DNA from: an uncultured delta proteobacterium
GTDB lineage: Bacteria > Myxococcota_A > Polyangia > Polyangiales > Houyiibacteriaceae
Assembly: GCA_963817725.1 (NCBI GenBank)
Contig: CAWFPD010000004.1
Span: 330,425 to 394,424 of the forward strand
Direction of reading: 5' to 3'
DNA length: 64,000 bases
The notes below the pieces were generated by a model. The model did no database searches and was not told the DNA's origin. It saw only the letters and a program-made list of their open reading frames with translations. This document shows positions 51,410-64,000 of this stretch, one piece after another. A program made the position numbers and the translations under genes. Position 1 is the stretch's first letter. Every line of letters begins with the position of its first letter.

Positions 51410-52066
51410 TCAGAAGGAGTAGCCGGCGCCGACCGAGATGATGGGGAACGCGTCGGGATAGTAAGCGTTCCTGAAGACCGCGAACTTCAGGGAGGTCGCG
51501 ACGAATGCGCCCCGCCCCACCCCCAAGAGAAAACCACCGCCGAGCAGCAGGTTTCCGTAGTTCGTCCTTCCCGAACGAAAGTCACCTTGGCGAAAGCCCG
51601 CGTTGATGATCTCGCCCTCGACCAAGAAGAACAGCATCTGGATCGGGTAAAGCCGCACGAATAGCGACCCACCGTAGGTATTCCACTTCACCTCTGGAAC
51701 CGCGACGCTGTCCTTGGTGAACTCGTAGCGGAAGGCGACTCCCGGCTCGACGATCCGCTTGAAGATATACGACACCTGCGGCGAAACGCCGACGGAGACG
51801 AATCCGGTGGCGAAGCCAAATCCGAGACCTCCACCGACGCGAAGATGGCCGGGCGGCTCTTTGCGGGACGGGGGCTTGCCGGGCTCGGCCGGTGGCGGTT
51901 CCGACTCCAATGGCACCGGTTCGGGGGGTGACGCCGCCGGCTCCGAGGGAGGCTCGGTGATGACCTCGACCCCGGGCTCCTCCTGGGCAGCCGCATGGTG
52001 TTCCGCGTCCAACGAGAGCGCTCCCCCCACGACCACGAGCGCTCCAAGCCAACGAAGGCAAGGCAC
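51410..52066 (-). CDS. Small predicted outer-membrane beta-barrel protein with a Pro/Glu-rich N-terminal linker
   Basis: Has a signal peptide, a PEP-rich linker and alternating beta-strand-like segments. It ends in GAGYSF. Confidence 0.5.
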   Translation of the reverse strand: MPCLRWLGALVVVGGALSLDAEHHAAAQEEPGVEVITEPPSEPAASPPEPVPLESEPPPAEPGKPPSRKEPPGHLRVGGGLGFGFATGFVSVGVSPQVSYIFKRIVEPGVAFRYEFTKDSVAVPEVKWNTYGGSLFVRLYPIQMLFFLVEGEIINAGFRQGDFRSGRTNYGNLLLGGGFLLGVGRGAFVATSLKFAVFRNAYYPDAFPIISVGAGYSF

Positions 52067-53288: not shown

Positions 53289-54530
53289 ATGGATGAACCC
53301 GCGGTGGTGTCTCGGATCGTGCACGATTCGTACGAGCGATCTGCTCGGCTGATGCCCAATGGGCCCTGGTGGGAGCATCTCGACGAAGATTTCGCGCGCA
53401 GTCCCGAGAAATTCGACTTGGCGCGCGCCGATCGATTGCAGATCGGCGCTGCTGCTGCATTTGATCACCTGGTACGGGCGGCGGTCGGCACCGTGGTGGG
53501 CGCCACCGCCATTCCCGTTGGCTTCAATCCGATCGAGCTCCGCCGCTCCATGCGAAGCGTGGGCCTATACGCCGAGATCGCGGAGTCCGGCGATGCGAGC
53601 CGCTTTTTTCACAATCCGCCGTCCGGAGTCCGAGTGCGCTTGAAGAAGGGGCGATGGTTTCCGCGTTTCGAGCCGGAAGACGGCATGTGCGAGGTTCTGC
53701 GCTTCGACAGTCCCTTCCAGCCGGTGCACCCCGCCCAACACCGGCCCTATCTTCGCCACGATCGAAACCGCATCGCGTACGCGCGGCTCATTCGGCACCG
53801 TGACGGACCGCGACCGACGATCGTGGCGATTCATGGGTTCATGGCCGAAGGCTACCTGATCAACGAATGGTTTTTCGCCTTGCCTTGGTTCTACCGAATG
53901 GGTTGTGACATCGCGCTATTCACGTTGCCATTCCACGGACCGCGCCAAACACGCTTCTCCCCCTTTTCGGGCCATGGCTTCTTCGCGGGCGGCTCGGCTC
54001 GCTTCAACGAGGCGGTTGCGCAATCGGTTTTGGACTTTCGGATCTTGTTCAATTGGCTTCAGCGCGAGCAGGGCGTCGAGCAGGTGGGCGTCACGGGCTT
54101 GAGCCTCGGTGGCTTCATCTCTTCGATGTTGGCAAGCGTCGAGAGCAGACTGGCATTCGCGCTACCGAACGTGCCGATCATCAGCGTGGCGGATCTGATG
54201 CTGGAGTGGCAGCCGATCGGTGCCCTGATGCGTGCTGCGCTTGCCGTCTCCGGGCTCGGCCCTGCCGATGCACGGCGCCTGGTGGCGGCCAGCTGTCCGC
54301 TCACGTATCCGCCCGTATTGCCCCGCGAACGGTTGATGATCGTCGGTGGCGCGGGGGACCGGCTGGCCCCTCCCAAGCACTCCCGGCTGCTGTGGGATCA
54401 TTGGCAGCGCTGCAGGATTTACTGGTTTCCCGGAAGCCATAGCATCCATCTCGACCGCGGAAAGTACCTGACCGAGATGGCTCGCTTTATGGTGGGCTTG
54501 GGTTTCTTACAGGCAGGGAGCGCACGATGA
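53289..54530 (+). CDS. Alpha/beta-fold hydrolase
   Basis: Oxyanion region IVAIHGF and nucleophile elbow GLSLGG. The 3' end overlaps the WS/DGAT start (ATGA). Confidence 0.7.
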   Translation: MDEPAVVSRIVHDSYERSARLMPNGPWWEHLDEDFARSPEKFDLARADRLQIGAAAAFDHLVRAAVGTVVGATAIPVGFNPIELRRSMRSVGLYAEIAESGDASRFFHNPPSGVRVRLKKGRWFPRFEPEDGMCEVLRFDSPFQPVHPAQHRPYLRHDRNRIAYARLIRHRDGPRPTIVAIHGFMAEGYLINEWFFALPWFYRMGCDIALFTLPFHGPRQTRFSPFSGHGFFAGGSARFNEAVAQSVLDFRILFNWLQREQGVEQVGVTGLSLGGFISSMLASVESRLAFALPNVPIISVADLMLEWQPIGALMRAALAVSGLGPADARRLVAASCPLTYPPVLPRERLMIVGGAGDRLAPPKHSRLLWDHWQRCRIYWFPGSHSIHLDRGKYLTEMARFMVGLGFLQAGSAR

Positions 54531-55960
54531 TCCCCGTAGCGACACTCGACGCCGCCATGCTCTACGCGGAGACGAAGGAGATGCCCATGCACACCATGGG
54601 CGTTTTGATCCTCGAACTGCAAGACGAGTCACAGGCAGCCATCGAGGGACGGTCGCCCTTCGAAGTCGTACAGCAGCGGTTCGCCGAGCGCATCCACTTG
54701 ATCCCCGCGTTTCGGCGACGGTTGGTGCAAGGGCCGCTCCAGATCGGCGACCCTCATTGGATCGAGGACCCATCGTTCGATCTCGACAAGCACCTGGTGC
54801 GCATCACGCTGCCCTCTCCGGGCACGATGCGCGACCTTTGTGAGCTCGTCGGCACTTTCGCGGCGAGCTGCCTCGATCGGGATCGTCCGCTGTGGAAAGC
54901 CGCGCTGGTCGAAGGCCTCGAGGACGGCAAGATCGCATTGATCATGAAGATTCACCACGCGGCGATGGATGGCGGCCGCGCTGCGGCCATCGCCAGCCAA
55001 CTGCTCGATACGAGCCTCGAAGGCGGAGAAGATCCGCCCCCCGGCGAGCCATGGATCCCCGACCGAGAGCCTTCCGTTTCTTGGCTAGCCGCCGACACGG
55101 TCAAAACGTTGGTTGGCAAGCCGCGACGCGCCGCACAGGCGGCAGCAAGAGTGGCCTCCGCAGTCCGGGCCCGGGGCCGCGCTCCGCAAGCACCGAAAAG
55201 CGACAGGCCCGCGCCGCCGTCCTTGTTCGACTCCCCTCCGACGCCTTTCAACGGCGCCCTCACATCGAACCGCTCCGTGGCGCTCGCCGATGTGGCGTTC
55301 GACGACGTGAAAGCGATCAAGCGCGCTTTCGGAACCACGGTGAACGACGTGGTGCTTGCGGCCTGCACCGCGAGCCTGCGATCTTGGCTCCTTGCCCACG
55401 GCGGACTTCCCGACCGTCCCTTGGTCGCGACGGTTCCCGTATCGGTTCGGCATGAAGGGGAGGACGCAGGCAACCGGGTGTCGGTGATCCGAGTGCATCT
55501 TCCCATCCAAAGCGAGGATCCCGTAGCCCGACTGATGAGCATCCACGAGGAGACGGCTCAGCGGAAAGAGCGACACAACCTCGGAGGCGGAGGCGGAGGC
55601 GACGTGCTCAGGAACTTCGCCGACGTGGTCAGCAACATCAGCGTGCCATGGATTCTGACCCACGTAATGAGCTTGTATTCGTCCTGGCATCTCGCCGATC
55701 GAGTTCCCCCGCTCTGGAACCTCGTCATCTCGAACATCGCGGGACCTCCGAAGCCGCTGTACTCACAGGGGGCGTTGCTCACGCATCTCTTTCCCCTGGG
55801 CCCGGTGCAACAAGGGTCGGGCCTCAACATCACGGTCATGAGCGTCGTGGATCGCCTCTGCTTTGGAGCATTGGCGTGCGCGGACTTGGTGCCCGACGTG
55901 GAGGATCTCGGTACTGGCTTCGTAGATGAAATCGAGCGGCTCTGCTCGATCTCACCATGA
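54527..55960 (+). CDS. Wax-ester synthase/diacylglycerol acyltransferase (WS/DGAT), intact
   Basis: Has the N-terminal LDAAMLYAETKEMPMH, the catalytic HHAAMDGG (HHxxxDG), NVAGP-like ISNIAGPPKPLY, and VMSVVDRLCFG. Confidence 0.85.
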   Translation: MIPVATLDAAMLYAETKEMPMHTMGVLILELQDESQAAIEGRSPFEVVQQRFAERIHLIPAFRRRLVQGPLQIGDPHWIEDPSFDLDKHLVRITLPSPGTMRDLCELVGTFAASCLDRDRPLWKAALVEGLEDGKIALIMKIHHAAMDGGRAAAIASQLLDTSLEGGEDPPPGEPWIPDREPSVSWLAADTVKTLVGKPRRAAQAAARVASAVRARGRAPQAPKSDRPAPPSLFDSPPTPFNGALTSNRSVALADVAFDDVKAIKRAFGTTVNDVVLAACTASLRSWLLAHGGLPDRPLVATVPVSVRHEGEDAGNRVSVIRVHLPIQSEDPVARLMSIHEETAQRKERHNLGGGGGGDVLRNFADVVSNISVPWILTHVMSLYSSWHLADRVPPLWNLVISNIAGPPKPLYSQGALLTHLFPLGPVQQGSGLNITVMSVVDRLCFGALACADLVPDVEDLGTGFVDEIERLCSISP

Positions 55961-57628
55961 CGGCCGCCAGGTCAGGTTTGATCCCAGCACCAGAACCCGC
56001 ACGTCTGAACCGAACATCCCGTCGGCTCGAAGGCCGAAATCCAAGTCGTCTCGCAGCGACAAGTAGAGGACTCCGCCAGCCGATTGCTGGAAATAGCTGT
56101 CCGGCGAAGCGTCATACTGATTGATCGACGCCCGATAGTACGCCGAGAGCTCGGCGATTCGGCCGATGTCGACACCGAGACCGAGACGAGCCGCATAATC
56201 CGCGACGAACGATTGGGCATAGGCCGCCACCGACACGTCAGCCCAACCGATCTCGCCGATGCGCAGGAAGCGCGCCTGCAGATAGCCGGTGATCTGGTCG
56301 TATTGATCGTCCGTTTGGCTGTGGACGATGCTGGCGCCTCCATAGAGCGCTACCCGCGAGAACGTGAAGCTCAAGTCGACGCCTCCGAAATAGCGATGGT
56401 CGTAGCTGTTCACGCATACGAGGGCATCGCCCGTGCTGGTCGTCGGGTCGGGCGCGGTGTTGCAAAGATACCCGAGCGGCAAATACGCGGTGAGCCAAAG
56501 CGATCGCTCCGGCAGACGCATGTCGAAACGGCCCGATATCTGGAAAAGCCCGAAACGTATCGAGGCATCCAGCCCTGCCATGCTCACCTCGGCCCGCGGC
56601 GCGAGCCAGGGGTTGTTCGCATCGTGTAGGGATAGCTCGAAATGCCCGGAGACGCGGGCTGTTCCTGGAAACACGTCGAATTCAGCATTCAAACGGCGCT
56701 CGTCGATTTCCCCCATGAAGATCGATCCATGGGCCGAGAGCGCCACGTACGGGTGGGAATCGAGCGTGTCGTTTTGATAGGCGAGCTCGGCGCCAAAACG
56801 GGCGGTATCGAGGGATGGGTAGTTGTCGAGTGGCTTGGGGACGGTGCCCCCAAAGGCGCCGATCGAAAAGCCCGCCCACGAAGGCGAGCGCACTCGAACG
56901 CCATCGAGCTGCCCCACACCCACCGCCACGTAAGGAAGCCTTCCGAGGGCGGCTTGCGGGGTCAGCGCGTTACCATAGCCAAACTGGAGCTCGCGCACCC
57001 GAACGATCGGCCGCGAGGAGCTTCCCGGACGATTCTGAATGTCGCCCCCGAACCAGGACTGCACCGCGACATCGACGTCGAAGAATACGGGTTGCTCGAA
57101 GGGCTCGGCATGAAGCCCCGCTCGCAGGGCCGCTCTGCCGAAGGAATTGCCTTCGCTGAGCGCGATGGTGCCTCCCACGTCGGTAGAGAGGAAGAGATCG
57201 ATCTTCTCTCCATCCGACCAAGTCCCGAGGGGTACGTAGTCCGGTTCTTGTTTGGTCGCCGGCAGCACGGGCTCGGGCCACTGGTCTTGGTAGGCGCTCA
57301 ACGGCTTCGGCTTGGGCAGCGCAGCAGCGACCTTGACTTCCCTCGACGCCTGCGAACGTCCCGTGGCGCCGGGCCGCAGCTCGCGTCCGCGCAACTCTAC
57401 TACGGAGTTCGTGCGGGTGACCGCAACGACTTGGTAGCGGCGATTGCGGAACACCACAACCGAGCCGATCTCGATCCCGGCATCCTGACCTGGCCGGAGA
57501 TAGGCCCGCCCGCCAGCCACCTCGACCACCTTGACCGTGACCGACTGCCGGGACTCTGCGTTCGCTCCCGACGTCAAGGCCACGATCCACATGAGCGCGC
57601 CGCAAGCTCGGAGGCAAACCTTCCTCAT
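55952..57628 (-). CDS. Predicted large outer-membrane beta-barrel (porin-like) protein; last gene of the multihaem cytochrome operon
   Basis: Signal peptide (ALTSGANA-ES). There are many alternating amphipathic strands, for example AEVSMAGLDASIRFGLFQISGRFDMRL and GGVLYLSLRDDLDFGLRADGMFG. The C-terminal residue is aromatic (TWRPSW). The ATG overlaps the upstream stop (57625-57628). Confidence 0.6.
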   Translation of the reverse strand: MRKVCLRACGALMWIVALTSGANAESRQSVTVKVVEVAGGRAYLRPGQDAGIEIGSVVVFRNRRYQVVAVTRTNSVVELRGRELRPGATGRSQASREVKVAAALPKPKPLSAYQDQWPEPVLPATKQEPDYVPLGTWSDGEKIDLFLSTDVGGTIALSEGNSFGRAALRAGLHAEPFEQPVFFDVDVAVQSWFGGDIQNRPGSSSRPIVRVRELQFGYGNALTPQAALGRLPYVAVGVGQLDGVRVRSPSWAGFSIGAFGGTVPKPLDNYPSLDTARFGAELAYQNDTLDSHPYVALSAHGSIFMGEIDERRLNAEFDVFPGTARVSGHFELSLHDANNPWLAPRAEVSMAGLDASIRFGLFQISGRFDMRLPERSLWLTAYLPLGYLCNTAPDPTTSTGDALVCVNSYDHRYFGGVDLSFTFSRVALYGGASIVHSQTDDQYDQITGYLQARFLRIGEIGWADVSVAAYAQSFVADYAARLGLGVDIGRIAELSAYYRASINQYDASPDSYFQQSAGGVLYLSLRDDLDFGLRADGMFGSDVRVLVLGSNLTWRPSW

Positions 57629-58542
57629 CGCGCCGTGCCTCCAGGATGGCATCCCAAGCAAGCGTGGGCGCTACCCGAGACGCGCTGCTTGTGTTGCTGT
57701 TGCAGCACGACCGCGTTGTGTGCGTGGCATCCCGTGCACCGGACGAATCGAGGCGTCTGCGCGGAGGTGTGGCAGCTGTTGCAACTCGCTCCACGATGGG
57801 GACCACGCGAAATGGGGAACGATCGATCGTGATTGGCGGGGACTGCCATTCCCCCCAGTCCGCCACGCACGGCGGCCGTCGTTGCGGCCGCAAGCGCGGT
57901 GGGGTCGATGAATGCAGGGCTCCAGGCGTGCGCCGTATGACATTGCGAGCAGTTCTGCGAAAACGGAGCGGTCGTTGCGGTTCCGCGATGGTCTGGATGA
58001 ACGTCGGGATCCAAATAGTCACTGGCGTGGCACGCAAAGCAATTGCTTTGTACCGTGGTCCATTGCCGTTCTCCGTTGCGCAGATGGCACTCGGTACAGG
58101 CCGCCAATGCGTGCATGCCCGTCAGCGGGAAGCGGGTTCGCCGATGGATTTCGAATGCCTCCATGTCGTTCCACCGCTTCGACGAATGACAGCTGTCGCA
58201 GCGGGCGCTCAGCCGCGACTGGTGCGGGTCCTTGTGGCACATGCTGCACTCACGTGTGACTCGCCGCTCGCCCTGGTGGCAACCGTTGCAAGCCACCGAC
58301 TCGTGCCTTCCGGTCAAGGGGAAACCCGTGCGGGAGTGGTCGAAGCCCTCCCCTTGCTTGCCGCCCGCCATGTTCCATCCAGCCGGTGTGTGGCAGTTGG
58401 CGCAATCGAGTCCCTCGGTGATCGAGTTGTGCCGGGACGCGACAGCGCTCGCCTTGCCCCGATCCGGATCCTTGGCCAGCGCAATACCCACAGCCCCTGC
58501 GAGGCCGGCTGCGACGACCGTGAAGAGCAAAGCCCGCTTCAC
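57625..58542 (-). CDS. Decahaem c-type cytochrome (10 CxxCH), secreted
   Basis: Ten CxxCH motifs counted: CANCH, CNGCH, CSMCH, CDSCH, CTECH, CFACH, CSQCH, CNSCH, CTGCH, CLGCH. Has a signal peptide. The GTG start overlaps the upstream TGA (GTGA at 58539-58542). Confidence 0.85.
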   Translation of the reverse strand: MKRALLFTVVAAGLAGAVGIALAKDPDRGKASAVASRHNSITEGLDCANCHTPAGWNMAGGKQGEGFDHSRTGFPLTGRHESVACNGCHQGERRVTRECSMCHKDPHQSRLSARCDSCHSSKRWNDMEAFEIHRRTRFPLTGMHALAACTECHLRNGERQWTTVQSNCFACHASDYLDPDVHPDHRGTATTAPFSQNCSQCHTAHAWSPAFIDPTALAAATTAAVRGGLGGMAVPANHDRSFPISRGPHRGASCNSCHTSAQTPRFVRCTGCHAHNAVVLQQQHKQRVSGSAHACLGCHPGGTAR

Positions 58543-60176
58543 CTTCCCCCCTTTCGCCGCGCGTGCGGATTGGCATGACAATCGGCACATTCCGTGTAAC
58601 CAAGACGGTATCGAATGACTTTGGACCCGCTACGAAGACGTTCCTTTCGATGGCACGCCACACACTTGAGATCCGCATGCACCCCTTCGAGGGGGTAATC
58701 GGCCAGCTCCGCATGGTCGAAGGATTCGATCTCGAACGAAACGGTCACATGACATGCGTCGCACTCTCGCTCGGGCGGTGTGAGGCGGAACTGCCCAGCA
58801 TGTACGTCGGTATGACAGCCGGAACATTCGCGTGGAGCTCCGCGGTATGTTGCGCCACTACCGCGGGCGCGGTCGCCCGGCGAGGCTTGATGACAGCTGT
58901 CACACGGCGTGCTGGCATGAACCCCGGTCAACGGCCACGAGCTGTGATCGATTTTGGGCGCATCCCATCCGCTCGAGGAATGACAGCTCGCACAGCCTCC
59001 CTCGGCCATTTCCTTGGCGAACTGGTCACCATGCGGGTTCTCGTGGCAATCGGCGCACTGCCTGCTCTTGACCCGGAGGTCGTACCTAGGCCGCTTGCCA
59101 CTGTGGCAGCTGCTGCAGGGAACTGCCTGGTGTTTCCCCTCCAGAGGAAAGTCCGTGCGGCCGTGTTGGGCTACGGAGAAGGAAGTCGGCCAAAAGCCCT
59201 GCTCATCGTGGCAGGTCGCGCAGTCCGTAGAGCCGAATTCGCCTCGGTGCGCATCGCGGTGGCAATCGGTGCACGCGGAGTACTTTAGACCCCGATAGCG
59301 ACGCGCTACGGGAAGCTTCGGAAGATGGCAGCGATTGCACGCGACCTCGGAGTGCATCCCTTCCAGTGGAAAGGCGGTCATCGGATGCGCGCGAAGACCG
59401 ACTCGTCGTGGCAAACCGAACCAACGAATGTTGGCGTGGCAGTTCTCGCACCGGTCGCCGAACTTGGCTTGGTGCACCTGTGCGTGGCAGGCGACGCACT
59501 CCGCGCCCGCGCTCGGCGGGTTGGTGTTGCCTTTGTCGTGACAGGCCTCGCACTTCGTCTTGGCATGACCCCCGGCCAGGCTCAGACCGGGATGATTGCT
59601 CCTGGCGTTCGTGACCTGGCTCCAGTCGGTTTCGTTGTGGCACGAGGTGCATTCGGCGTTGGCGAACCTGCCTTCGTGGGGATCCTCGTGGCAGGACACG
59701 CAGTCGGTCTTCAGACCGAGAAACGTCGCATGACCGCGCCGGTTCTTGCGATCATGGCAATCATCGCATTTCACCGGCGCGTGAGCGCCCTTGAGCGGCC
59801 AACCCGCTTGGCGATGGTCGAAGCGCTCGCGCGTGCCACCTGGCCACCGAACCAGCTTGGCGTTTCTTCCGAGATGCTCGACGTGGCATTGGCCACAGTC
59901 CTGCCCTCGATACTCGCGACCGTGCAGGCCTGCTTGCTGCCGTATCCGAGCGCGCAAGTCATCGTGGCAGCCGAGACAGGCGTCGGTATCGAGCCGCTGA
60001 CCGGTCGAATGGCACTCGTTGCATTTCGCATCTCCCTCGAGGTCCGCGTGGGCGTTGGTCAGCTTGCCCGGCGACAGGAACTGGGCGCCGGTTGACCGAG
60101 GCACAAGCACGCCCGTGACCGCGGCCGCGATCATCAGCGAGCCCAGCAACGCCATGGCTTTCGTGCGCCCGCTCAT
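58539..60176 (-). CDS. 20-haem c-type cytochrome (c7/c3-type repeated modules), secreted
   Basis: Twenty CxxCH motifs counted, with the recurring module FxH...PLxGxH....CxxCH. Has a signal peptide. The ATG overlaps the upstream stop (ATGA at 60173-60176). Confidence 0.85.
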   Translation of the reverse strand: MSGRTKAMALLGSLMIAAAVTGVLVPRSTGAQFLSPGKLTNAHADLEGDAKCNECHSTGQRLDTDACLGCHDDLRARIRQQAGLHGREYRGQDCGQCHVEHLGRNAKLVRWPGGTRERFDHRQAGWPLKGAHAPVKCDDCHDRKNRRGHATFLGLKTDCVSCHEDPHEGRFANAECTSCHNETDWSQVTNARSNHPGLSLAGGHAKTKCEACHDKGNTNPPSAGAECVACHAQVHQAKFGDRCENCHANIRWFGLPRRVGLRAHPMTAFPLEGMHSEVACNRCHLPKLPVARRYRGLKYSACTDCHRDAHRGEFGSTDCATCHDEQGFWPTSFSVAQHGRTDFPLEGKHQAVPCSSCHSGKRPRYDLRVKSRQCADCHENPHGDQFAKEMAEGGCASCHSSSGWDAPKIDHSSWPLTGVHASTPCDSCHQASPGDRARGSGATYRGAPRECSGCHTDVHAGQFRLTPPERECDACHVTVSFEIESFDHAELADYPLEGVHADLKCVACHRKERLRSGSKVIRYRLGYTECADCHANPHARRKGGR

Positions 60177-61060
60177 TGGGAAAAAATCCATCGGTAGCCG
60201 TAGATCCAGGCGACGGCGATGTGCACGGGAACGAGCAACACCAGGATGAGCGCGAGCAAGCGGTGGAACCCTCGCCACGACTGAAGCAGAGACGAGGCGC
60301 CCACCGCGACGACCTCGCGAGTCGCATACTTACGAACGGCGCGCTTGGCCTTTCGAAAGCGCCGGCGTTCCTTGCGGCCAAGAACACCAGCTACCGGGGC
60401 ATCTTCGATGACGTAGCTGACGATGAAGCCGCGGGACCGCGCGTCGCGCGCCCACTTTGGGACGGCGGCGAGCTTGGCAAGCAACCACCGGTGCGTATCG
60501 ACCTGGGTGACCTTGTGGATGGTGAGCGCGTGGTACACCCGCGTGCTGCATCCGGGAGCCAGCTCGTCCAACGATGCAAGCGCCCGCTCGAGCCCGGCGC
60601 GATCGGGACGCGGCGTGAGGGCGTAGAGGTATCGGCCCGCAACGCCCGTCGCCACCACGACCCCGAGACTGACCGCCGTGACCTGGGCGATGGGCGTTCG
60701 AAACTGGAAAGCGGAGTGAAATAGGATGAGAAGCGAGCCGATGAGGCCGGTAAAGACGTGTAGGTGTAGCCAACTCGCCATCGAACCAAGAGACCACCGA
60801 GCCAAACGGCGGCGCGCCAGGTAAAGAAGGTTGGCGAGGATCAGAACCGTGCCCACGATGCCGTACCCGTGCCCCACCAGGCCACCTGGCCGCAGAGAGT
60901 CGTACGCGCGGTGCTCGACCCGCGATTCGAGATCCGACAAGTAGAAGTCTTTGCCGACATCCCAAAGCACGTACGCCAGCACGCACAGCGCGAGCAGCAC
61001 GAGCAGAACGGCGGTTCGATCCGCACGGCGCTTCCCAGCACTCTTGGTTTGCCTCGCCAC
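60173..61060 (-). CDS. Polytopic inner-membrane protein with His in TM helices (possible haem-b/quinol-interacting partner)
   Basis: About five hydrophobic helices. His residues sit in WLHLHVFTGLIGSLLILFHSAF and FHRLLALILVLLVPVHIAVAW. GTG start. It is the first gene of the coupled operon. Confidence 0.55.
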   Translation of the reverse strand: MARQTKSAGKRRADRTAVLLVLLALCVLAYVLWDVGKDFYLSDLESRVEHRAYDSLRPGGLVGHGYGIVGTVLILANLLYLARRRLARWSLGSMASWLHLHVFTGLIGSLLILFHSAFQFRTPIAQVTAVSLGVVVATGVAGRYLYALTPRPDRAGLERALASLDELAPGCSTRVYHALTIHKVTQVDTHRWLLAKLAAVPKWARDARSRGFIVSYVIEDAPVAGVLGRKERRRFRKAKRAVRKYATREVVAVGASSLLQSWRGFHRLLALILVLLVPVHIAVAWIYGYRWIFSQ

Positions 61061-61169
61061 AGGCCCCCTACGGCACGACCCCTACAGACGGCGGGTCCCC
61101 CGCCCCCCCTGCATGTTAGACTGGCACCATACCAGACGGCCAATATTGATACAAAAGGGTCGATATCCG

Positions 61170-62483
61170 ATGACCACATGGACCGTACTTGCTTTCTTCG
61201 TCGCAGTCGCATTTGCCTTGAACCTCTATTGGAGGCGCCAGGAGCAGGCGCGCACTGAGACGGGCCGCCAGGAGCTCGAAGAGCTACGCGCGATGGGGGA
61301 CCTGGTCCCGGCCAGCATTCACCCTGAGATCGACCCGCTCCGATGTATCGGCTCGGGGGCTTGCGTCTACGCCTGCCCCGAGAAGAGCGTGCTGACCGTG
61401 GTCAATGGCAGGGGCGTGCTGACCAATCCCCTCGGTTGCATCGGACACGGCGCTTGCGCATCGGCGTGCCCCGTGCAGGCGATCTCCCTCGTGTTCGGCA
61501 CCGTCCAGCGCGGGCTCGAGCTCCCGCAGGTCGATTCCAACTTTCAGACGAACCAGCCCGGCGTCTACATCGTCGGCGAGCTCGGCGGGATGGGGCTCAT
61601 CCGCAACGCGGTGTCCCAGGGGCGGCAGGCCGCGGAGCATATCGTGGCGAGCGATCGAAGGGGAGCGGGTGAGTGCCTGGACGCGTTGGTCGTCGGCGCA
61701 GGCCCGGCCGGCACCAGTGCGACGCTTCGTCTCATGGAAGCGGGACTACGGGTGTTGTTGCTCGAACGCGAAGCCTTTGGCGGCACGATTGCGCATTATC
61801 CCCGGGCAAAGGTCGTGATGACGGGATCCCTCGACTTCCCGATGTACGGGCGCGTATCGAAGCGAAAGATGAGCAAAGAGCAGCTGGTCACGCTTTGGGA
61901 AGATATTCGCGACAAGACCGACCTGCATGTCGCCGTGGGCGAGCTCGTCCAAAAGATCGAGCCTGCAAGCGATGGCAGCTGGATGGTCCATGCCACGACC
62001 GGTGTCTTTCGAGCTGCTAACGTGCTCCTGGCGCTCGGGCGCCGTGGCTCTCCACGCAAGCTCGATGTACCCGGTGAGGAGCGCGCCAAAGTGGCGTACC
62101 GGGTCATCGAGCCGGAGGTGTTCAGAGACCAGCACGTGCTCGTGGTGGGAGGCGGCAATGCAGCCGTGGAGTCGGCTTTTGCGTTGATCGACGAGGGGCA
62201 ATGCGCCTCGGTGAGCATCAGCTACCGGAAAAACAGCTTTGCCAGGTGCCGTCAGCCGAATCGAAAGCGGGTCGAAGCGGAAATCGAAGCGGGTCGGCTG
62301 ACCGCGTTGATGGGCACAGAGGTCGAGGAGATCCTCGAAGATCGAGTCACGCTTCGCAATGGGTCCGCAGAGCGGATCTCCATCCGGAACGACGCCGTGG
62401 TGGTTCAGATCGGCGGGACAGCACCAACCGATTTGCTTCAGGGCATCGGTGTCGAGATCGTGACCAAATACGGAGAGGCCTAG
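61170..62483 (+). CDS. Membrane-anchored ferredoxin-like / FAD-NAD(P) pyridine-nucleotide-disulfide-type oxidoreductase
   Basis: N-terminal TM helix (WTVLAFFVAVAFALNLYW). Two three-Cys ferredoxin-like motifs, CIGSGACVYACP and CIGHGACASACP. Dinucleotide folds ALVVGAGPAGTSATLRL and VLVVGGGNAAVESA. Confidence 0.7.
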   Translation: MTTWTVLAFFVAVAFALNLYWRRQEQARTETGRQELEELRAMGDLVPASIHPEIDPLRCIGSGACVYACPEKSVLTVVNGRGVLTNPLGCIGHGACASACPVQAISLVFGTVQRGLELPQVDSNFQTNQPGVYIVGELGGMGLIRNAVSQGRQAAEHIVASDRRGAGECLDALVVGAGPAGTSATLRLMEAGLRVLLLEREAFGGTIAHYPRAKVVMTGSLDFPMYGRVSKRKMSKEQLVTLWEDIRDKTDLHVAVGELVQKIEPASDGSWMVHATTGVFRAANVLLALGRRGSPRKLDVPGEERAKVAYRVIEPEVFRDQHVLVVGGGNAAVESAFALIDEGQCASVSISYRKNSFARCRQPNRKRVEAEIEAGRLTALMGTEVEEILEDRVTLRNGSAERISIRNDAVVVQIGGTAPTDLLQGIGVEIVTKYGEA

Positions 62484-63169
62484 TCGCCGCGATTGATGCC
62501 GTCTGCATGGCAGTCGAGGCAGAAATTCGGCGGCGCCGCTCCACTCGGATAGTTACCGACCTCGTTGTGCTTTGGATCCATCCGGGCCCGCGTGTGCGCA
62601 CCGTCGTGGCAACCGACACAATCGGCGTTCTCGCCATTCACAGGTGAGCCGAGATCCGGGTTGTGACAGGATACACAGTCATTGCGGTAGGGCGAGTGCG
62701 GCCCGCTTTGAATCGGGAAGGCGTTTTCCGGATGCGTGCCACCGGTCGCGGGTGTCCAAGCGGTCGTAGTGTGACAGTTCTGGCAGGTCGTGGGGAACTC
62801 CGAATGGCCCGGGAATGGGCTCGAATCGTAGTCGGCTTGATGACAACCCACACAAGCCGTCGGCGTGCCCGCGTACACCGGCGGATCGCCCACGTGACAC
62901 GAGCCGCAATCGAGACTCTCGTGTGCGCCGGTCAGCGGCCATTGATGCTGGAACTCGGCCGGCGACCAAGCATCGCTGTTGTGGCAGGTCCCGCAGGTAT
63001 CTGGGAAACCCTCATGCGGCGGGTTCAGCGCGTGCTGCACATCGGCTGCGTGGCACACGATGCAATCGCTGCTGCGAACCTTCATCCGCTCGTGGTCCTG
63101 CGCGCTGCCCCCAATGCAGGCGTGAATGAACCACACCACGACGATCAACCCGATCCTCAACGCTCGCAT
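62480..63169 (-). CDS. Octahaem c-type cytochrome, secreted (possibly lipidated)
   Basis: Eight CxxCH motifs: CIVCH, CGTCH, CGSCH, CVGCH, CQNCH, CVSCH, CVGCH, CLDCH. The start is placed at MRALRIGLIVVVWFIHAC. Confidence 0.8.
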   Translation of the reverse strand: MRALRIGLIVVVWFIHACIGGSAQDHERMKVRSSDCIVCHAADVQHALNPPHEGFPDTCGTCHNSDAWSPAEFQHQWPLTGAHESLDCGSCHVGDPPVYAGTPTACVGCHQADYDSSPFPGHSEFPTTCQNCHTTTAWTPATGGTHPENAFPIQSGPHSPYRNDCVSCHNPDLGSPVNGENADCVGCHDGAHTRARMDPKHNEVGNYPSGAAPPNFCLDCHADGINRGD

Positions 63170-63350: not shown

Positions 63351-64000
63351 ATGAGGGTGAGTACGGGTATCCTGCTGATGGCGGTTGGCGCCAGCGCCCT
63401 GATCGGCGTCGGGTGCAGTGGGGACACGGGCGCCTCGCATGAGCCAGGGACGGTCCGTCAAGCCGAATGCATCACGTGCCATGAGGCGGACCGCAAAGGA
63501 GCGCTCAGTCCACCGCACGACAGCCTGCCAACTACCTGTCAGGACTGCCACTCTGAGCATCAGTGGATCCCCGCGCTGTCGACCACGATTCACACGCCAC
63601 TTCCGGCATCGTGCTTGACGTGTCACGAAGACGAGCCGCGGCCCGAGACGATCTTCCACACGCAGATGCTCGACCCGGAGTGCGCCCGCTGCCATCGAAG
63701 CTTTCCCGATTGGACACGGGCTGACTTCCTTCACGCCCCGGTGCCTGAAACCTGCAACGCTTGCCACAGCGATCTCAGACCCGACACGCCGACTCATCAA
63801 TCCGCCGCGGGCCAGGGCGATTGTGCCTCGTGCCACATCGTCACCGACTGGTCCGTCACCGACCCAGCGGAGCTCCACACGCCACTTCCGGCATCGTGCT
63901 CGACGTGTCACCAAAACGAACAGCGTGAGCAGACGGTCTTCCACACCCAGGTGCTCGAGCCGGAGTGCGCCAGCTGCCACCAGAACTATCCGGATTGGAC
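63351..64000 (+). CDS. Modular multihaem c-type cytochrome lipoprotein; 5' part, open at the 3' window edge (not in the supplied ORF track)
   Basis: My own translation from the ATG at 63351 reads MRVSTGILLMAVGASALIGVGCSGD..., has no stop through 64000, and carries lipobox IGVGC. Eight CxxCH so far: CITCH, CQDCH, CLTCH, CARCH, CNACH, CASCH, CSTCH, CASCH. A 285-nt module begins to repeat at 63591 and 63876. Confidence 0.8.
   Translation, partial: MRVSTGILLMAVGASALIGVGCSGDTGASHEPGTVRQAECITCHEADRKGALSPPHDSLPTTCQDCHSEHQWIPALSTTIHTPLPASCLTCHEDEPRPETIFHTQMLDPECARCHRSFPDWTRADFLHAPVPETCNACHSDLRPDTPTHQSAAGQGDCASCHIVTDWSVTDPAELHTPLPASCSTCHQNEQREQTVFHTQVLEPECASCHQNYPDW

Follow-up and report, generated by a model that had tools for sequence, protein, structure and literature searches.

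A candidate PCC3-type trans-envelope electron conduit with a conserved Fe-S flavoprotein partner in uncultured Polyangia

We have analysed a stretch of 64,000 nucleotides (the window) from an uncultured member of the Polyangiales, phylum Myxococcota (assembly GCA_963817725.1, contig CAWFPD010000004.1, positions 330,425 to 394,424 of the forward strand). Towards one end of the window lie four overlapping genes, here called A to D, which encode a putative inner-membrane cytochrome b, two multihaem cytochromes c (MHCs) and a predicted outer-membrane β-barrel. A fifth gene, F, diverges from A and encodes an Fe-S flavoprotein. We propose that the locus encodes a trans-envelope electron conduit of the porin-cytochrome class known as PCC3, and that F is most likely the cytoplasmic partner of A; we give this reading a probability of about 0.6. 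The initial annotation of this DNA had already read the operon as a porin-cytochrome conduit. Our results support that reading in silico, and extracellular electron transfer (EET) is what we infer from it.

Results

Layout of the locus

The genes of the locus are as follows. The entries for A to D come from the table of open reading frames and from direct translation.

Gene A, 60173-61060, minus strand: 295 aa, putative inner-membrane cytochrome b
Gene B, 58539-60176, minus strand: 545 aa, 20 CxxCH motifs
Gene C, 57625-58542, minus strand: 305 aa, 10 CxxCH motifs
Gene D, 55952-57628, minus strand: 558 aa, no CxxCH motif, signal peptide ...ANA/E
A/F divergent intergenic region, 61061-61169: 109 bp, presumed to bear promoters
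Gene F, 61170-62483, plus strand: 437 aa, membrane-anchored Fe-S/FAD/NAD(P)-type flavoprotein, divergent from A
Gene E, 62480-63169, minus strand: cytochrome c of about 229 aa, 8 CxxCH motifs, with its start at M47 of the open reading frame 62480-63307
Gene G, 5′ part, 63351-64000, plus strand: MHC with at least 8 CxxCH motifs, running past the end of the window

As the initial annotation had described, the four minus-strand genes between 55952 and 61060 are joined by 4-nt overlaps, which read on the coding strand ATGA at 60173-60176 (A/B), GTGA at 58539-58542 (B/C) and ATGA at 57625-57628 (C/D). These overlaps indicate translational coupling, but the obligatory co-translation and fixed stoichiometry that had also been claimed are not proven by overlaps of 4 nt.

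A six-frame scan of the window counted 46 CxxCH motifs within about 6.4 kb (57.6-64.0 kb), in agreement with the figure of at least 46 given earlier: 20 in B, 10 in C, 8 in E and at least 8 in G. Only 4 such motifs occur in the remaining 57 kb or so. This crowding excludes a chance origin of the haem motifs.

Operon A-B-C-D fits the published description of PCC3

PCC3 was defined bioinformatically by He et al. (2017; PMC5566968) and has been surveyed in the Gallionellaceae (PMC10734462). Examples are Slit_0867-0870 and Slit_1446-1449 of Sideroxydans lithotrophicus ES-1 and a cluster of Leptothrix cholodnii SP-6 (PMC5566968, PMC10734462). The class is referred to in the literature as 'functionally unverified'.

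As the class is described in these accounts, four parts lie side by side: an inner-membrane protein (IMP), a long periplasmic MHC, a second MHC and a porin. The same four consecutive parts are found here. The PCC3 IMP is given as a protein of about 300 aa with five transmembrane (TM) helices, the motif WX3HX13H on TM3 and TM5, and SGXXG on TM4 (PMC5566968). A agrees in size (295 aa), in its five TM helices and in the placing of WX3HX13H on TM3 and TM5; most copies of A have T instead of S in the TM4 motif, a conservative S/T difference. The periplasmic MHC is described as carrying 21-27 haems, one for every 26-27 aa, in repeats of about 66 aa, and a periplasm-spanning role has been proposed for it (PMC5566968, PMC10734462). 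B has 20 haems (20-23 in its relatives), one for every 27.2 aa, in modules of about 70 aa, and we count it as a match. The second MHC has a published range of 10-35 haems (PMC10734462), within which the 10 haems of C fall, although C has no sign of being a large extracellular cytochrome. For the porin, 22 strands were predicted in L. cholodnii (PMC5566968) and about 22 are modelled in D.

In terms of these published descriptions, the locus differs from PCC3 in two further respects. PCC3 was reported from Alpha-, Beta- and Gammaproteobacteria (PMC5566968), whereas the operon studied here occurs in metagenome-assembled genomes (MAGs) of Myxococcota (Polyangia). Furthermore, F and E accompany the operon here, and the available parts of the two surveys (PMC5566968, PMC10734462) mention neither for PCC3. 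Our literature search found no paper tying PCC3 to Myxococcota. Because the locus agrees with five published defining features, compared by description rather than by sequence, we conclude that it fits the PCC3 type. The architecture had been presented in the initial annotation as if it were new; it was, as far as the published description goes, already known as PCC3 (PMC5566968).

A is a putative dihaem cytochrome b

The sequence of A has five hydrophobic segments, and an AlphaFold2 (AF2) model of the protein is all-helical, with helices that agree with these segments (predicted local distance difference test score, pLDDT, 86). A cytoplasmic helical insert of about 110 aa is also present. The initial annotation had pointed to His pairs inside two TM helices as a potential haem-b/quinol site. 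These are found as H101/H115 in TM3, within W97-x3-H101-x13-H115 (W97LHLH101...H115), and as H266/H280 in TM5, within W262-x3-H266-x13-H280 (W262RGFH266...H280). TM4 carries T138-G139-V-A-G142, in which residue 138 is T in at least 90% of the relatives and S in some (e.g. P0189). Across 39 relatives of 41-89% identity and one further relative of 33%, the His/Trp motifs and G139/G142 are invariant or nearly so.

Pfam searches on the 39 relatives matched DUF4405 (PF14358) in 26 at E<=0.01 and Ni_hydr_CYTB (prokaryotic cytochrome b561) in 11, and these matches fall on the His-bearing helices. The five relatives that we examined scored 28-32 bits for DUF4405 against a cutoff of 26.7, on TM3 or TM5, and one relative showed weak similarity to Pfam Ferric_reduct. 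Haem b binding has been demonstrated for one purified DUF4405 protein (PMC11334425). The positive-inside rule would place H101 and H266 towards the cytoplasm and H115 and H280 towards the periplasm, which would be the geometry of a dihaem cytochrome b. We regard A as a putative inner-membrane dihaem b-type cytochrome of the DUF4405-like kind, and the conserved dihaem-b signature, together with the DUF4405 matches of the relatives, makes the haem-b site proposed earlier a plausible one.

Within the insert (residues ~131-245), P201 and R210 are invariant and W203 is nearly so; this region may be a docking surface. When the A profile was compared with the PDB it matched only designed armadillo-repeat proteins (E down to 4.5e-6), through the K/R-rich insert. 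We judged this likeness to be probably compositional.

B and C are multihaem cytochromes of different kinds

The initial annotation had called B and C secreted cytochromes with 20 and 10 CxxCH motifs, the former built of c7/c3-like modules, and our counts agree. B is made up of a dihaem end and six trihaem modules of the c7 type, each about 70 aa long, and eight stretches of it match Pfam Cytochrome_C7 (E=7e-28). Its single N-terminal hydrophobic segment suggests a secreted or an anchored protein. C has a Sec signal peptide (...IALA/K), no lipobox, and 30.5 aa per haem. There are 22 His residues in B and 14 in C beyond those of the CxxCH motifs, which is sufficient for bis-His ligation. Neither protein belongs to the DmsE/MtrA family as modelled by TIGR03508 (cutoff 192.2 bits; C scores 17.7 and B 40.3). 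Against the PDB, the sequence of B found no match and that of C reached about E 0.05 at best, with nine-haem cytochromes only.

Going by c7 polymers such as GSU1996, 20 haems could extend roughly 15-20 nm. B is a putative periplasm-spanning wire and would be the counterpart of the periplasmic MHC of PCC3. C contains 10 haems in all loci but one, down to 43% identity; the exception, locus L020, has a C of 9 haems, and the neighbouring genes are truncated there. As the haem number of C is fixed while the length of B varies, the two patterns fit the idea that C is a component constrained by the barrel. C is our candidate for a barrel-associated or surface cytochrome, in the position of the extracellular MHC of PCC3.

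D is predicted to be a large outer-membrane barrel

An AF2 model of D made with a 41-sequence alignment (pLDDT 86.1) shows 22 long antiparallel strands in residues 143-554. They are preceded by a signal helix, a small β domain (28-94) and a disordered Pro-rich linker (95-140), and the protein has an aromatic C-terminus (...TWRPSW). Alternating hydropathy in the modelled strands amounts to 2.8 units, compared with 1.64 in the control. A Foldseek search of the PDB with this model gave 345 matches at E<=1e-3. All of the 50 listed are barrels of the outer membrane, among them MOMP, OccK, AlgE, PirA and the usher pores PapC and FimD. TM-scores were modest (0.3-0.5), as expected for barrels of unequal size. 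The initial annotation had predicted a large outer-membrane barrel with a signal peptide and had raised the possibility that the 558-aa protein might instead be soluble or not a barrel. The model, with about 22 strands, and the Foldseek matches listed, which are barrels only, both point to a large β-barrel.

At the sequence level D stands apart from described families. It has no Pfam match at E<=0.1 and no NCBIfam match, none of its 41 relatives matches MtrB_PioB at E<=1, and 3 of them match Porin_4 weakly. A profile of the D family found no sequence match among PDB chains, MtrB included. D itself is 100% identical to the NCBI protein WAU39_21655, and its family comprises 95 close to mid-distance relatives and 143 clusters at E<=1e-30 among 1.84 billion representatives. 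A loop insert (residues 377-407) carries the invariant pair C389/C405, which presumably forms a disulfide.

The operon is conserved across Myxococcota

We scanned one genome per GTDB species with an 11-sequence alignment of D and found 28 loci. All are in MAGs, and every one with a taxon-specific name belongs to the Myxococcota; the named lineages are Polyangiales, Sandaracinaceae, Polyangiaceae and Haliangium, and a contig of Labilithrix came to light separately. Starting from A, an independent scan of metagenomes yielded 24 loci that are 9 kb or longer, have a GC content of 0.61-0.72 and show an identical gene order. The order A-B-C-D is present in every locus with enough flank, more than 50 loci in all. 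When diverse A sequences were used as seeds, the metagenome scan returned only high-GC A-B-C-D loci and no proteobacterial PCC3, and a set of 72,556 plasmids gave no tblastn match to A or D.

The 4-nt overlaps of B with C and of C with D recur in distant loci. The A/B junction varies, with a gap of 38 nt in L032 and overlaps of 16 nt in L036 and 37 nt in L035. A rearranged variant of the module was found in another Myxococcota lineage (L037, 1873-11686; JABWCM01), where the order is F, a 23-haem, a 13-haem and a 35-haem cytochrome (the last lipoprotein-like), a D-like barrel and an A-like protein. The haem counts of this variant are nearer to those of classical PCC3. Since the gene set persists through this reordering, the variant gives good support to the view that the six functions form one set.

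The possibility of a periplasmic terminal reductase in orthologous operons, also raised in the initial annotation, was examined in the window and in ten annotated neighbourhoods, distant loci included. No reductase of the nitrite, sulfite or hydroxylamine type stands beside the operon in any of them.

F is a conserved flavoprotein with atypical Fe-S motifs

F matches Pyr_redox_3 (4e-35) and Fer4 families in Pfam, and its FAD and NAD(P) domain is of the thioredoxin-reductase (TrxR)/FNR-like type and lacks the redox CxxC. Its nearest solved structures are YpdA/Bdr, TrxR and a TrxR-like FNR. The protein begins with a TM helix followed by two arginines and has no twin-arginine translocation (Tat) motif; from these features its catalytic domains are predicted to be cytoplasmic. 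Two Fe-S motifs have a non-canonical second ligand: CxxSxxCxxxCP (CIGSGACVYACP, residues 59-70) and CxxHxxCxxxCP (CIGHGACASACP, residues 90-101). Of 113 homologues, 109 keep the Ser and His variants and 97 keep the N-terminal anchor. The conserved Ser and His in place of the second Cys suggest that the clusters of F are of the 3Fe-4S type, or are 4Fe-4S clusters with Ser/His ligands and shifted potentials.

F adjoins A-B-C-D in most of the genome loci and in 21 of the 24 metagenome loci, and some 90% of loci have both F and E together with the operon. We also started from three independently chosen homologues of F, about 60% identical, and each of them had the A-B-C-D cluster adjoining. A flavoprotein with atypical cluster ligands as a conserved partner of the operon is a new point.

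The 3′ ends of E and F converge and overlap by 4 nt. Relatives of E adjoin F in most loci, and lie on the same strand as F in L034 and L035. G has a lipoprotein-like signal (...ALIGVGC/SGD) and an internal protein repeat of about 112 aa (HTPLPASC.TCH...FHTQ.L.PEC..CH); G-like repeats flank the module in L011, L016, L017, L019 and L020. G could be a surface-exposed cytochrome of the system. A search for a DNA tandem repeat in the E/G region found none. The 109-bp region between A and F had no match to a sigma-70-like or sigma-54-like consensus, and scans for sigma-70 promoters and terminators gave background levels only.

Neighbouring genes

An FHA-domain sigma-54 activator and a Ser/Thr protein kinase are encoded near the module in three distant loci (L001, 527-4191; L032, 2492-6603; L034, 10379-14011) and are possible regulators of it. 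The neighbours in the window include WS/DGAT, hydrolase, phosphofructokinase and CoA-transferase genes. An α/β-hydrolase gene and a wax-ester synthase/DGAT gene (53289-55960, plus strand) overlap each other by 4 nt and converge on D, with stops that overlap at 55952-55960. This pair is syntenic with D in all close relatives (at least 65% identity) and not in distant ones, and is therefore probably unrelated to the conduit. Further away, 51410-52066 (minus strand) encodes a secreted protein of 218 aa with a Pro/Glu-rich linker and a β-rich C-terminal half ending in ...GAGYSF. It has no Pfam match and looks like a small outer-membrane barrel.

Discussion

Relation to other electron-transfer systems

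Besides PCC3, the locus resembles several known systems in part. As described by He et al. (2017), PCC4 combines a porin with a periplasmic MHC of 10 haems and an IMP that has five TM helices and the same His motifs; it has no large extracellular MHC. In its subgroup II an Fe-S gene adjoins the IMP gene, and one genome annotates the two as a single gene. However, the cytochromes of PCC4 are described as having 4, 5 or 10 haems, with no 20-haem wire; its IMP belongs to a family other than that of PCC3; and its Fe-S partner is a pfam13247 protein, whereas F combines Fer4 with an FNR-like flavoprotein.

In the MtrAB(C), MtoAB and PioAB systems the gene for a decahaem cytochrome lies immediately upstream of that for a large barrel, at about 30 aa per haem, as with C and D here, and the cytochrome MtrA is sheathed by the barrel MtrB (PMC7198977). 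The differences are that MtrB has 26 strands and D about 22, that D does not match MtrB_PioB and C is not a DmsE/MtrA member, and that a dihaem b protein stands where the Mtr type has a CymA-type inner partner and a 20-haem wire replaces the small shuttles. The Geobacter Pcc system (OmbB-OmaB-OmcB) pairs an 18-22-strand porin with a periplasmic multihaem cytochrome, and the strand count of D fits this. Its cytochromes have 8 and 12 haems, its porin gene comes first, it includes a lipoprotein cytochrome and it has no IMP, whereas here the haem counts are 20 and 10, the operon has no lipoprotein cytochrome and A is present. Within the Myxococcota, Anaeromyxobacter has two-gene pcc clusters of a porin and a 12-haem cytochrome (PMC4245776). 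The initial annotation had held that the operon does not match the Geobacter or Shewanella archetypes. Family models and haem counts bear this out, but the order of cytochrome then barrel does resemble mtrA-mtrB and pioA-pioB.

The members of the FRD superfamily (NOX/FRE, and MsrQ with Fre) have, like A, an HX13H motif on each of TM3 and TM5; in these proteins the motifs bind haems at both faces of the membrane. In NOX a cytoplasmic NAD(P)H flavoprotein is fused to the membrane domain and in MsrQ/Fre it is separate; both send electrons outward. The FRD proteins have six helices, whereas A has five and a cytoplasmic helical insert, and their acceptors are O2, Fe(III) or MsrP rather than a 30-haem c-type chain. 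Unlike the FRD systems, the putative reductase F has two atypical Fe-S clusters and a membrane anchor of its own.

A model for the conduit

Based on these results, we propose a model for electron flow through the locus. The two b-haems of A would take electrons across the inner membrane, and B would carry them through the periplasm to C. By analogy with MtrA in MtrB, C may sit in or on barrel D. From there C would exchange electrons with extracellular partners, possibly via E and G.

The input into A may come from F, which points to NAD(P)H as a source other than the quinol suggested in the initial annotation. In this part of the model electrons would move from NAD(P)H to FAD, then to the two atypical Fe-S clusters and on to A, with or without a dedicated quinone step in between, and the net reaction would be an NAD(P)H-driven reduction of an extracellular acceptor. 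We propose F as the partner of A because of its predicted cytoplasmic domains, its FNR/TrxR-like fold without a redox disulfide and its tight co-location with the operon. There are precedents for such a pairing. The cytosolic reductase Fre feeds the FRD-type protein MsrQ (PMC12525009), and the Fe-S gene that is described next to the IMP gene in PCC4 subgroup II may be an analogous case.

Several observations weigh against this model. Window A has no Pfam match at E<=0.1, DUF4405 included, and its model found no match in the PDB at E<0.5 by Foldseek. Haem binding by A thus rests on its motifs and on its relatives. The link of F to A is guilt by association: in 3 of the 24 metagenome loci the contig or flank showed no F, and in L033 the copy of F lies about 7 kb from the operon and is only 36% identical. 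C has no lipobox, and its surface exposure is conjectural. The D family also includes a full-length barrel (L038, 8393-10003; 29% identity, with the same N-terminal domain) that has no cytochrome genes within 19 kb, although an NDH-2-like gene is nearby, and a 229-aa C-terminal fragment of D beside a two-component system (L031, 8223-8912). These two cases indicate that the D family is not confined to cytochrome operons. The PCC3 genes of Sideroxydans ES-1 are not induced but down-regulated on Fe(II). The conduit is a prediction from sequences and models. Lastly, sending electrons outward from NAD(P)H would run the membrane potential down instead of building it up, which argues against a respiratory role. 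As outward flow would be driven by the membrane potential, non-respiratory roles such as iron acquisition, redox balancing or extracellular chemistry are as likely as dissimilatory metal respiration.

A more specific form of the model is that F and A together make a two-component, NOX-like and quinone-independent export route, from NAD(P)H through FAD, Fe-S clusters, b-haems and 30 c-haems to the surface. We put this forward only tentatively and think it rather unlikely in this strict form.

Alternative readings

The main rival to outward flow from F is that the conduit runs in reverse: electrons would be taken from donors outside the cell (Fe(II), Mn(II), reduced humics, minerals, partner cells) and delivered via A to the quinone pool, with F accessory or unrelated. 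Polyangia are generally aerobes, and for aerobic Polyangia the oxidation of a donor is as plausible as metal respiration. The Ni_hydr_CYTB matches of the A relatives are to a family of quinone-reactive cytochromes b. Uptake is also what was first hypothesised for PCC3 and PCC4 in iron oxidisers: in the published models, as described, an extracellular donor supplies the quinone pool and the IMP acts as a quinone-active cytochrome b (PMC5566968). The Gallionellaceae survey describes Mto/Mtr conduits as considered reversible (PMC10734462). On the other hand, a conserved NAD(P)-type flavoprotein with cytoplasmic Fe-S centres has no obvious role in taking up high-potential electrons, no quinone-site motif was identified, and the lack of induction of PCC3 by Fe(II) in ES-1 speaks against uptake as well. 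Nothing in the sequence itself sets the direction. We consider uptake a possible reading but a doubtful one.

It is also conceivable that the network stays within the periplasm, with B, C and E as carriers or capacitors fed by A, and D an ordinary porin that happens to be co-transcribed, so that electrons do not cross the outer membrane. Such a network would account for the few weak Porin_4 matches among the D relatives and for the D-family barrel without cytochromes in L038, and He et al. note many pairs of an MHC and a five-TM IMP without a porin that they judge unlikely to carry out EET. However, the 4-nt overlap and the C-then-D order are kept in more than 50 loci, over which D falls to 31% identity; with a single exception the haem number of C is constant, unlike that of B; 22 strands make a barrel far bigger than a diffusion porin requires; and no periplasmic terminal reductase is co-encoded. 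This makes a network confined to the periplasm quite improbable.

That D is an export or assembly channel, usher-like or secretin-like, which secretes C, E or G or assembles an extracellular cytochrome filament, and not a static, insulating casing for a cytochrome, seems to us a very remote prospect: usher pores are among the top Foldseek matches, D has an extra N-terminal periplasmic β domain and linker, and electron conduits resemble outer-membrane secretory barrels (PMC7198977), but the usher TM-scores are low (0.35-0.41) and interleaved with those of unrelated porins, no chaperone, pilin-like or filament-type cytochrome features were seen, and D has one small modelled N-terminal domain and lacks the plug and C-terminal domains of ushers.

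Implications

The outward conduit with F as its cytoplasmic partner remains the reading that we prefer, and it bears on PCC3 as a whole. PCC3-type clusters are widespread in iron-cycling Proteobacteria and are used as markers for possible iron oxidation or reduction. Our results extend this architecture to another phylum, in dozens of uncultured Polyangia from soils and sediments. As it occurs in a phylum of very different lifestyle, the role of PCC3 is arguably broader than lithotrophic Fe(II) oxidation.

Two points are new here: the operon has a conserved Fe-S/FAD/NAD(P) partner, and the IMP can be assigned to the DUF4405-like haem-b proteins. Together they make the input side of PCC3-type conduits experimentally testable. 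Published models have given the role of partner of A-type proteins to the quinone pool without evidence, and F is a concrete candidate for an alternative source or drain. If quinone-independent export were true, F would be the first defined cytoplasmic electron source for the whole PCC3 class, and these presumably aerobic Polyangia would carry out a non-respiratory, NAD(P)H-driven extracellular reduction, which might help them to acquire iron, to balance their redox state or to attack prey. Should the six-gene module function as we propose, it would also offer a compact candidate part with which to connect cytoplasmic NAD(P)H to electrodes.

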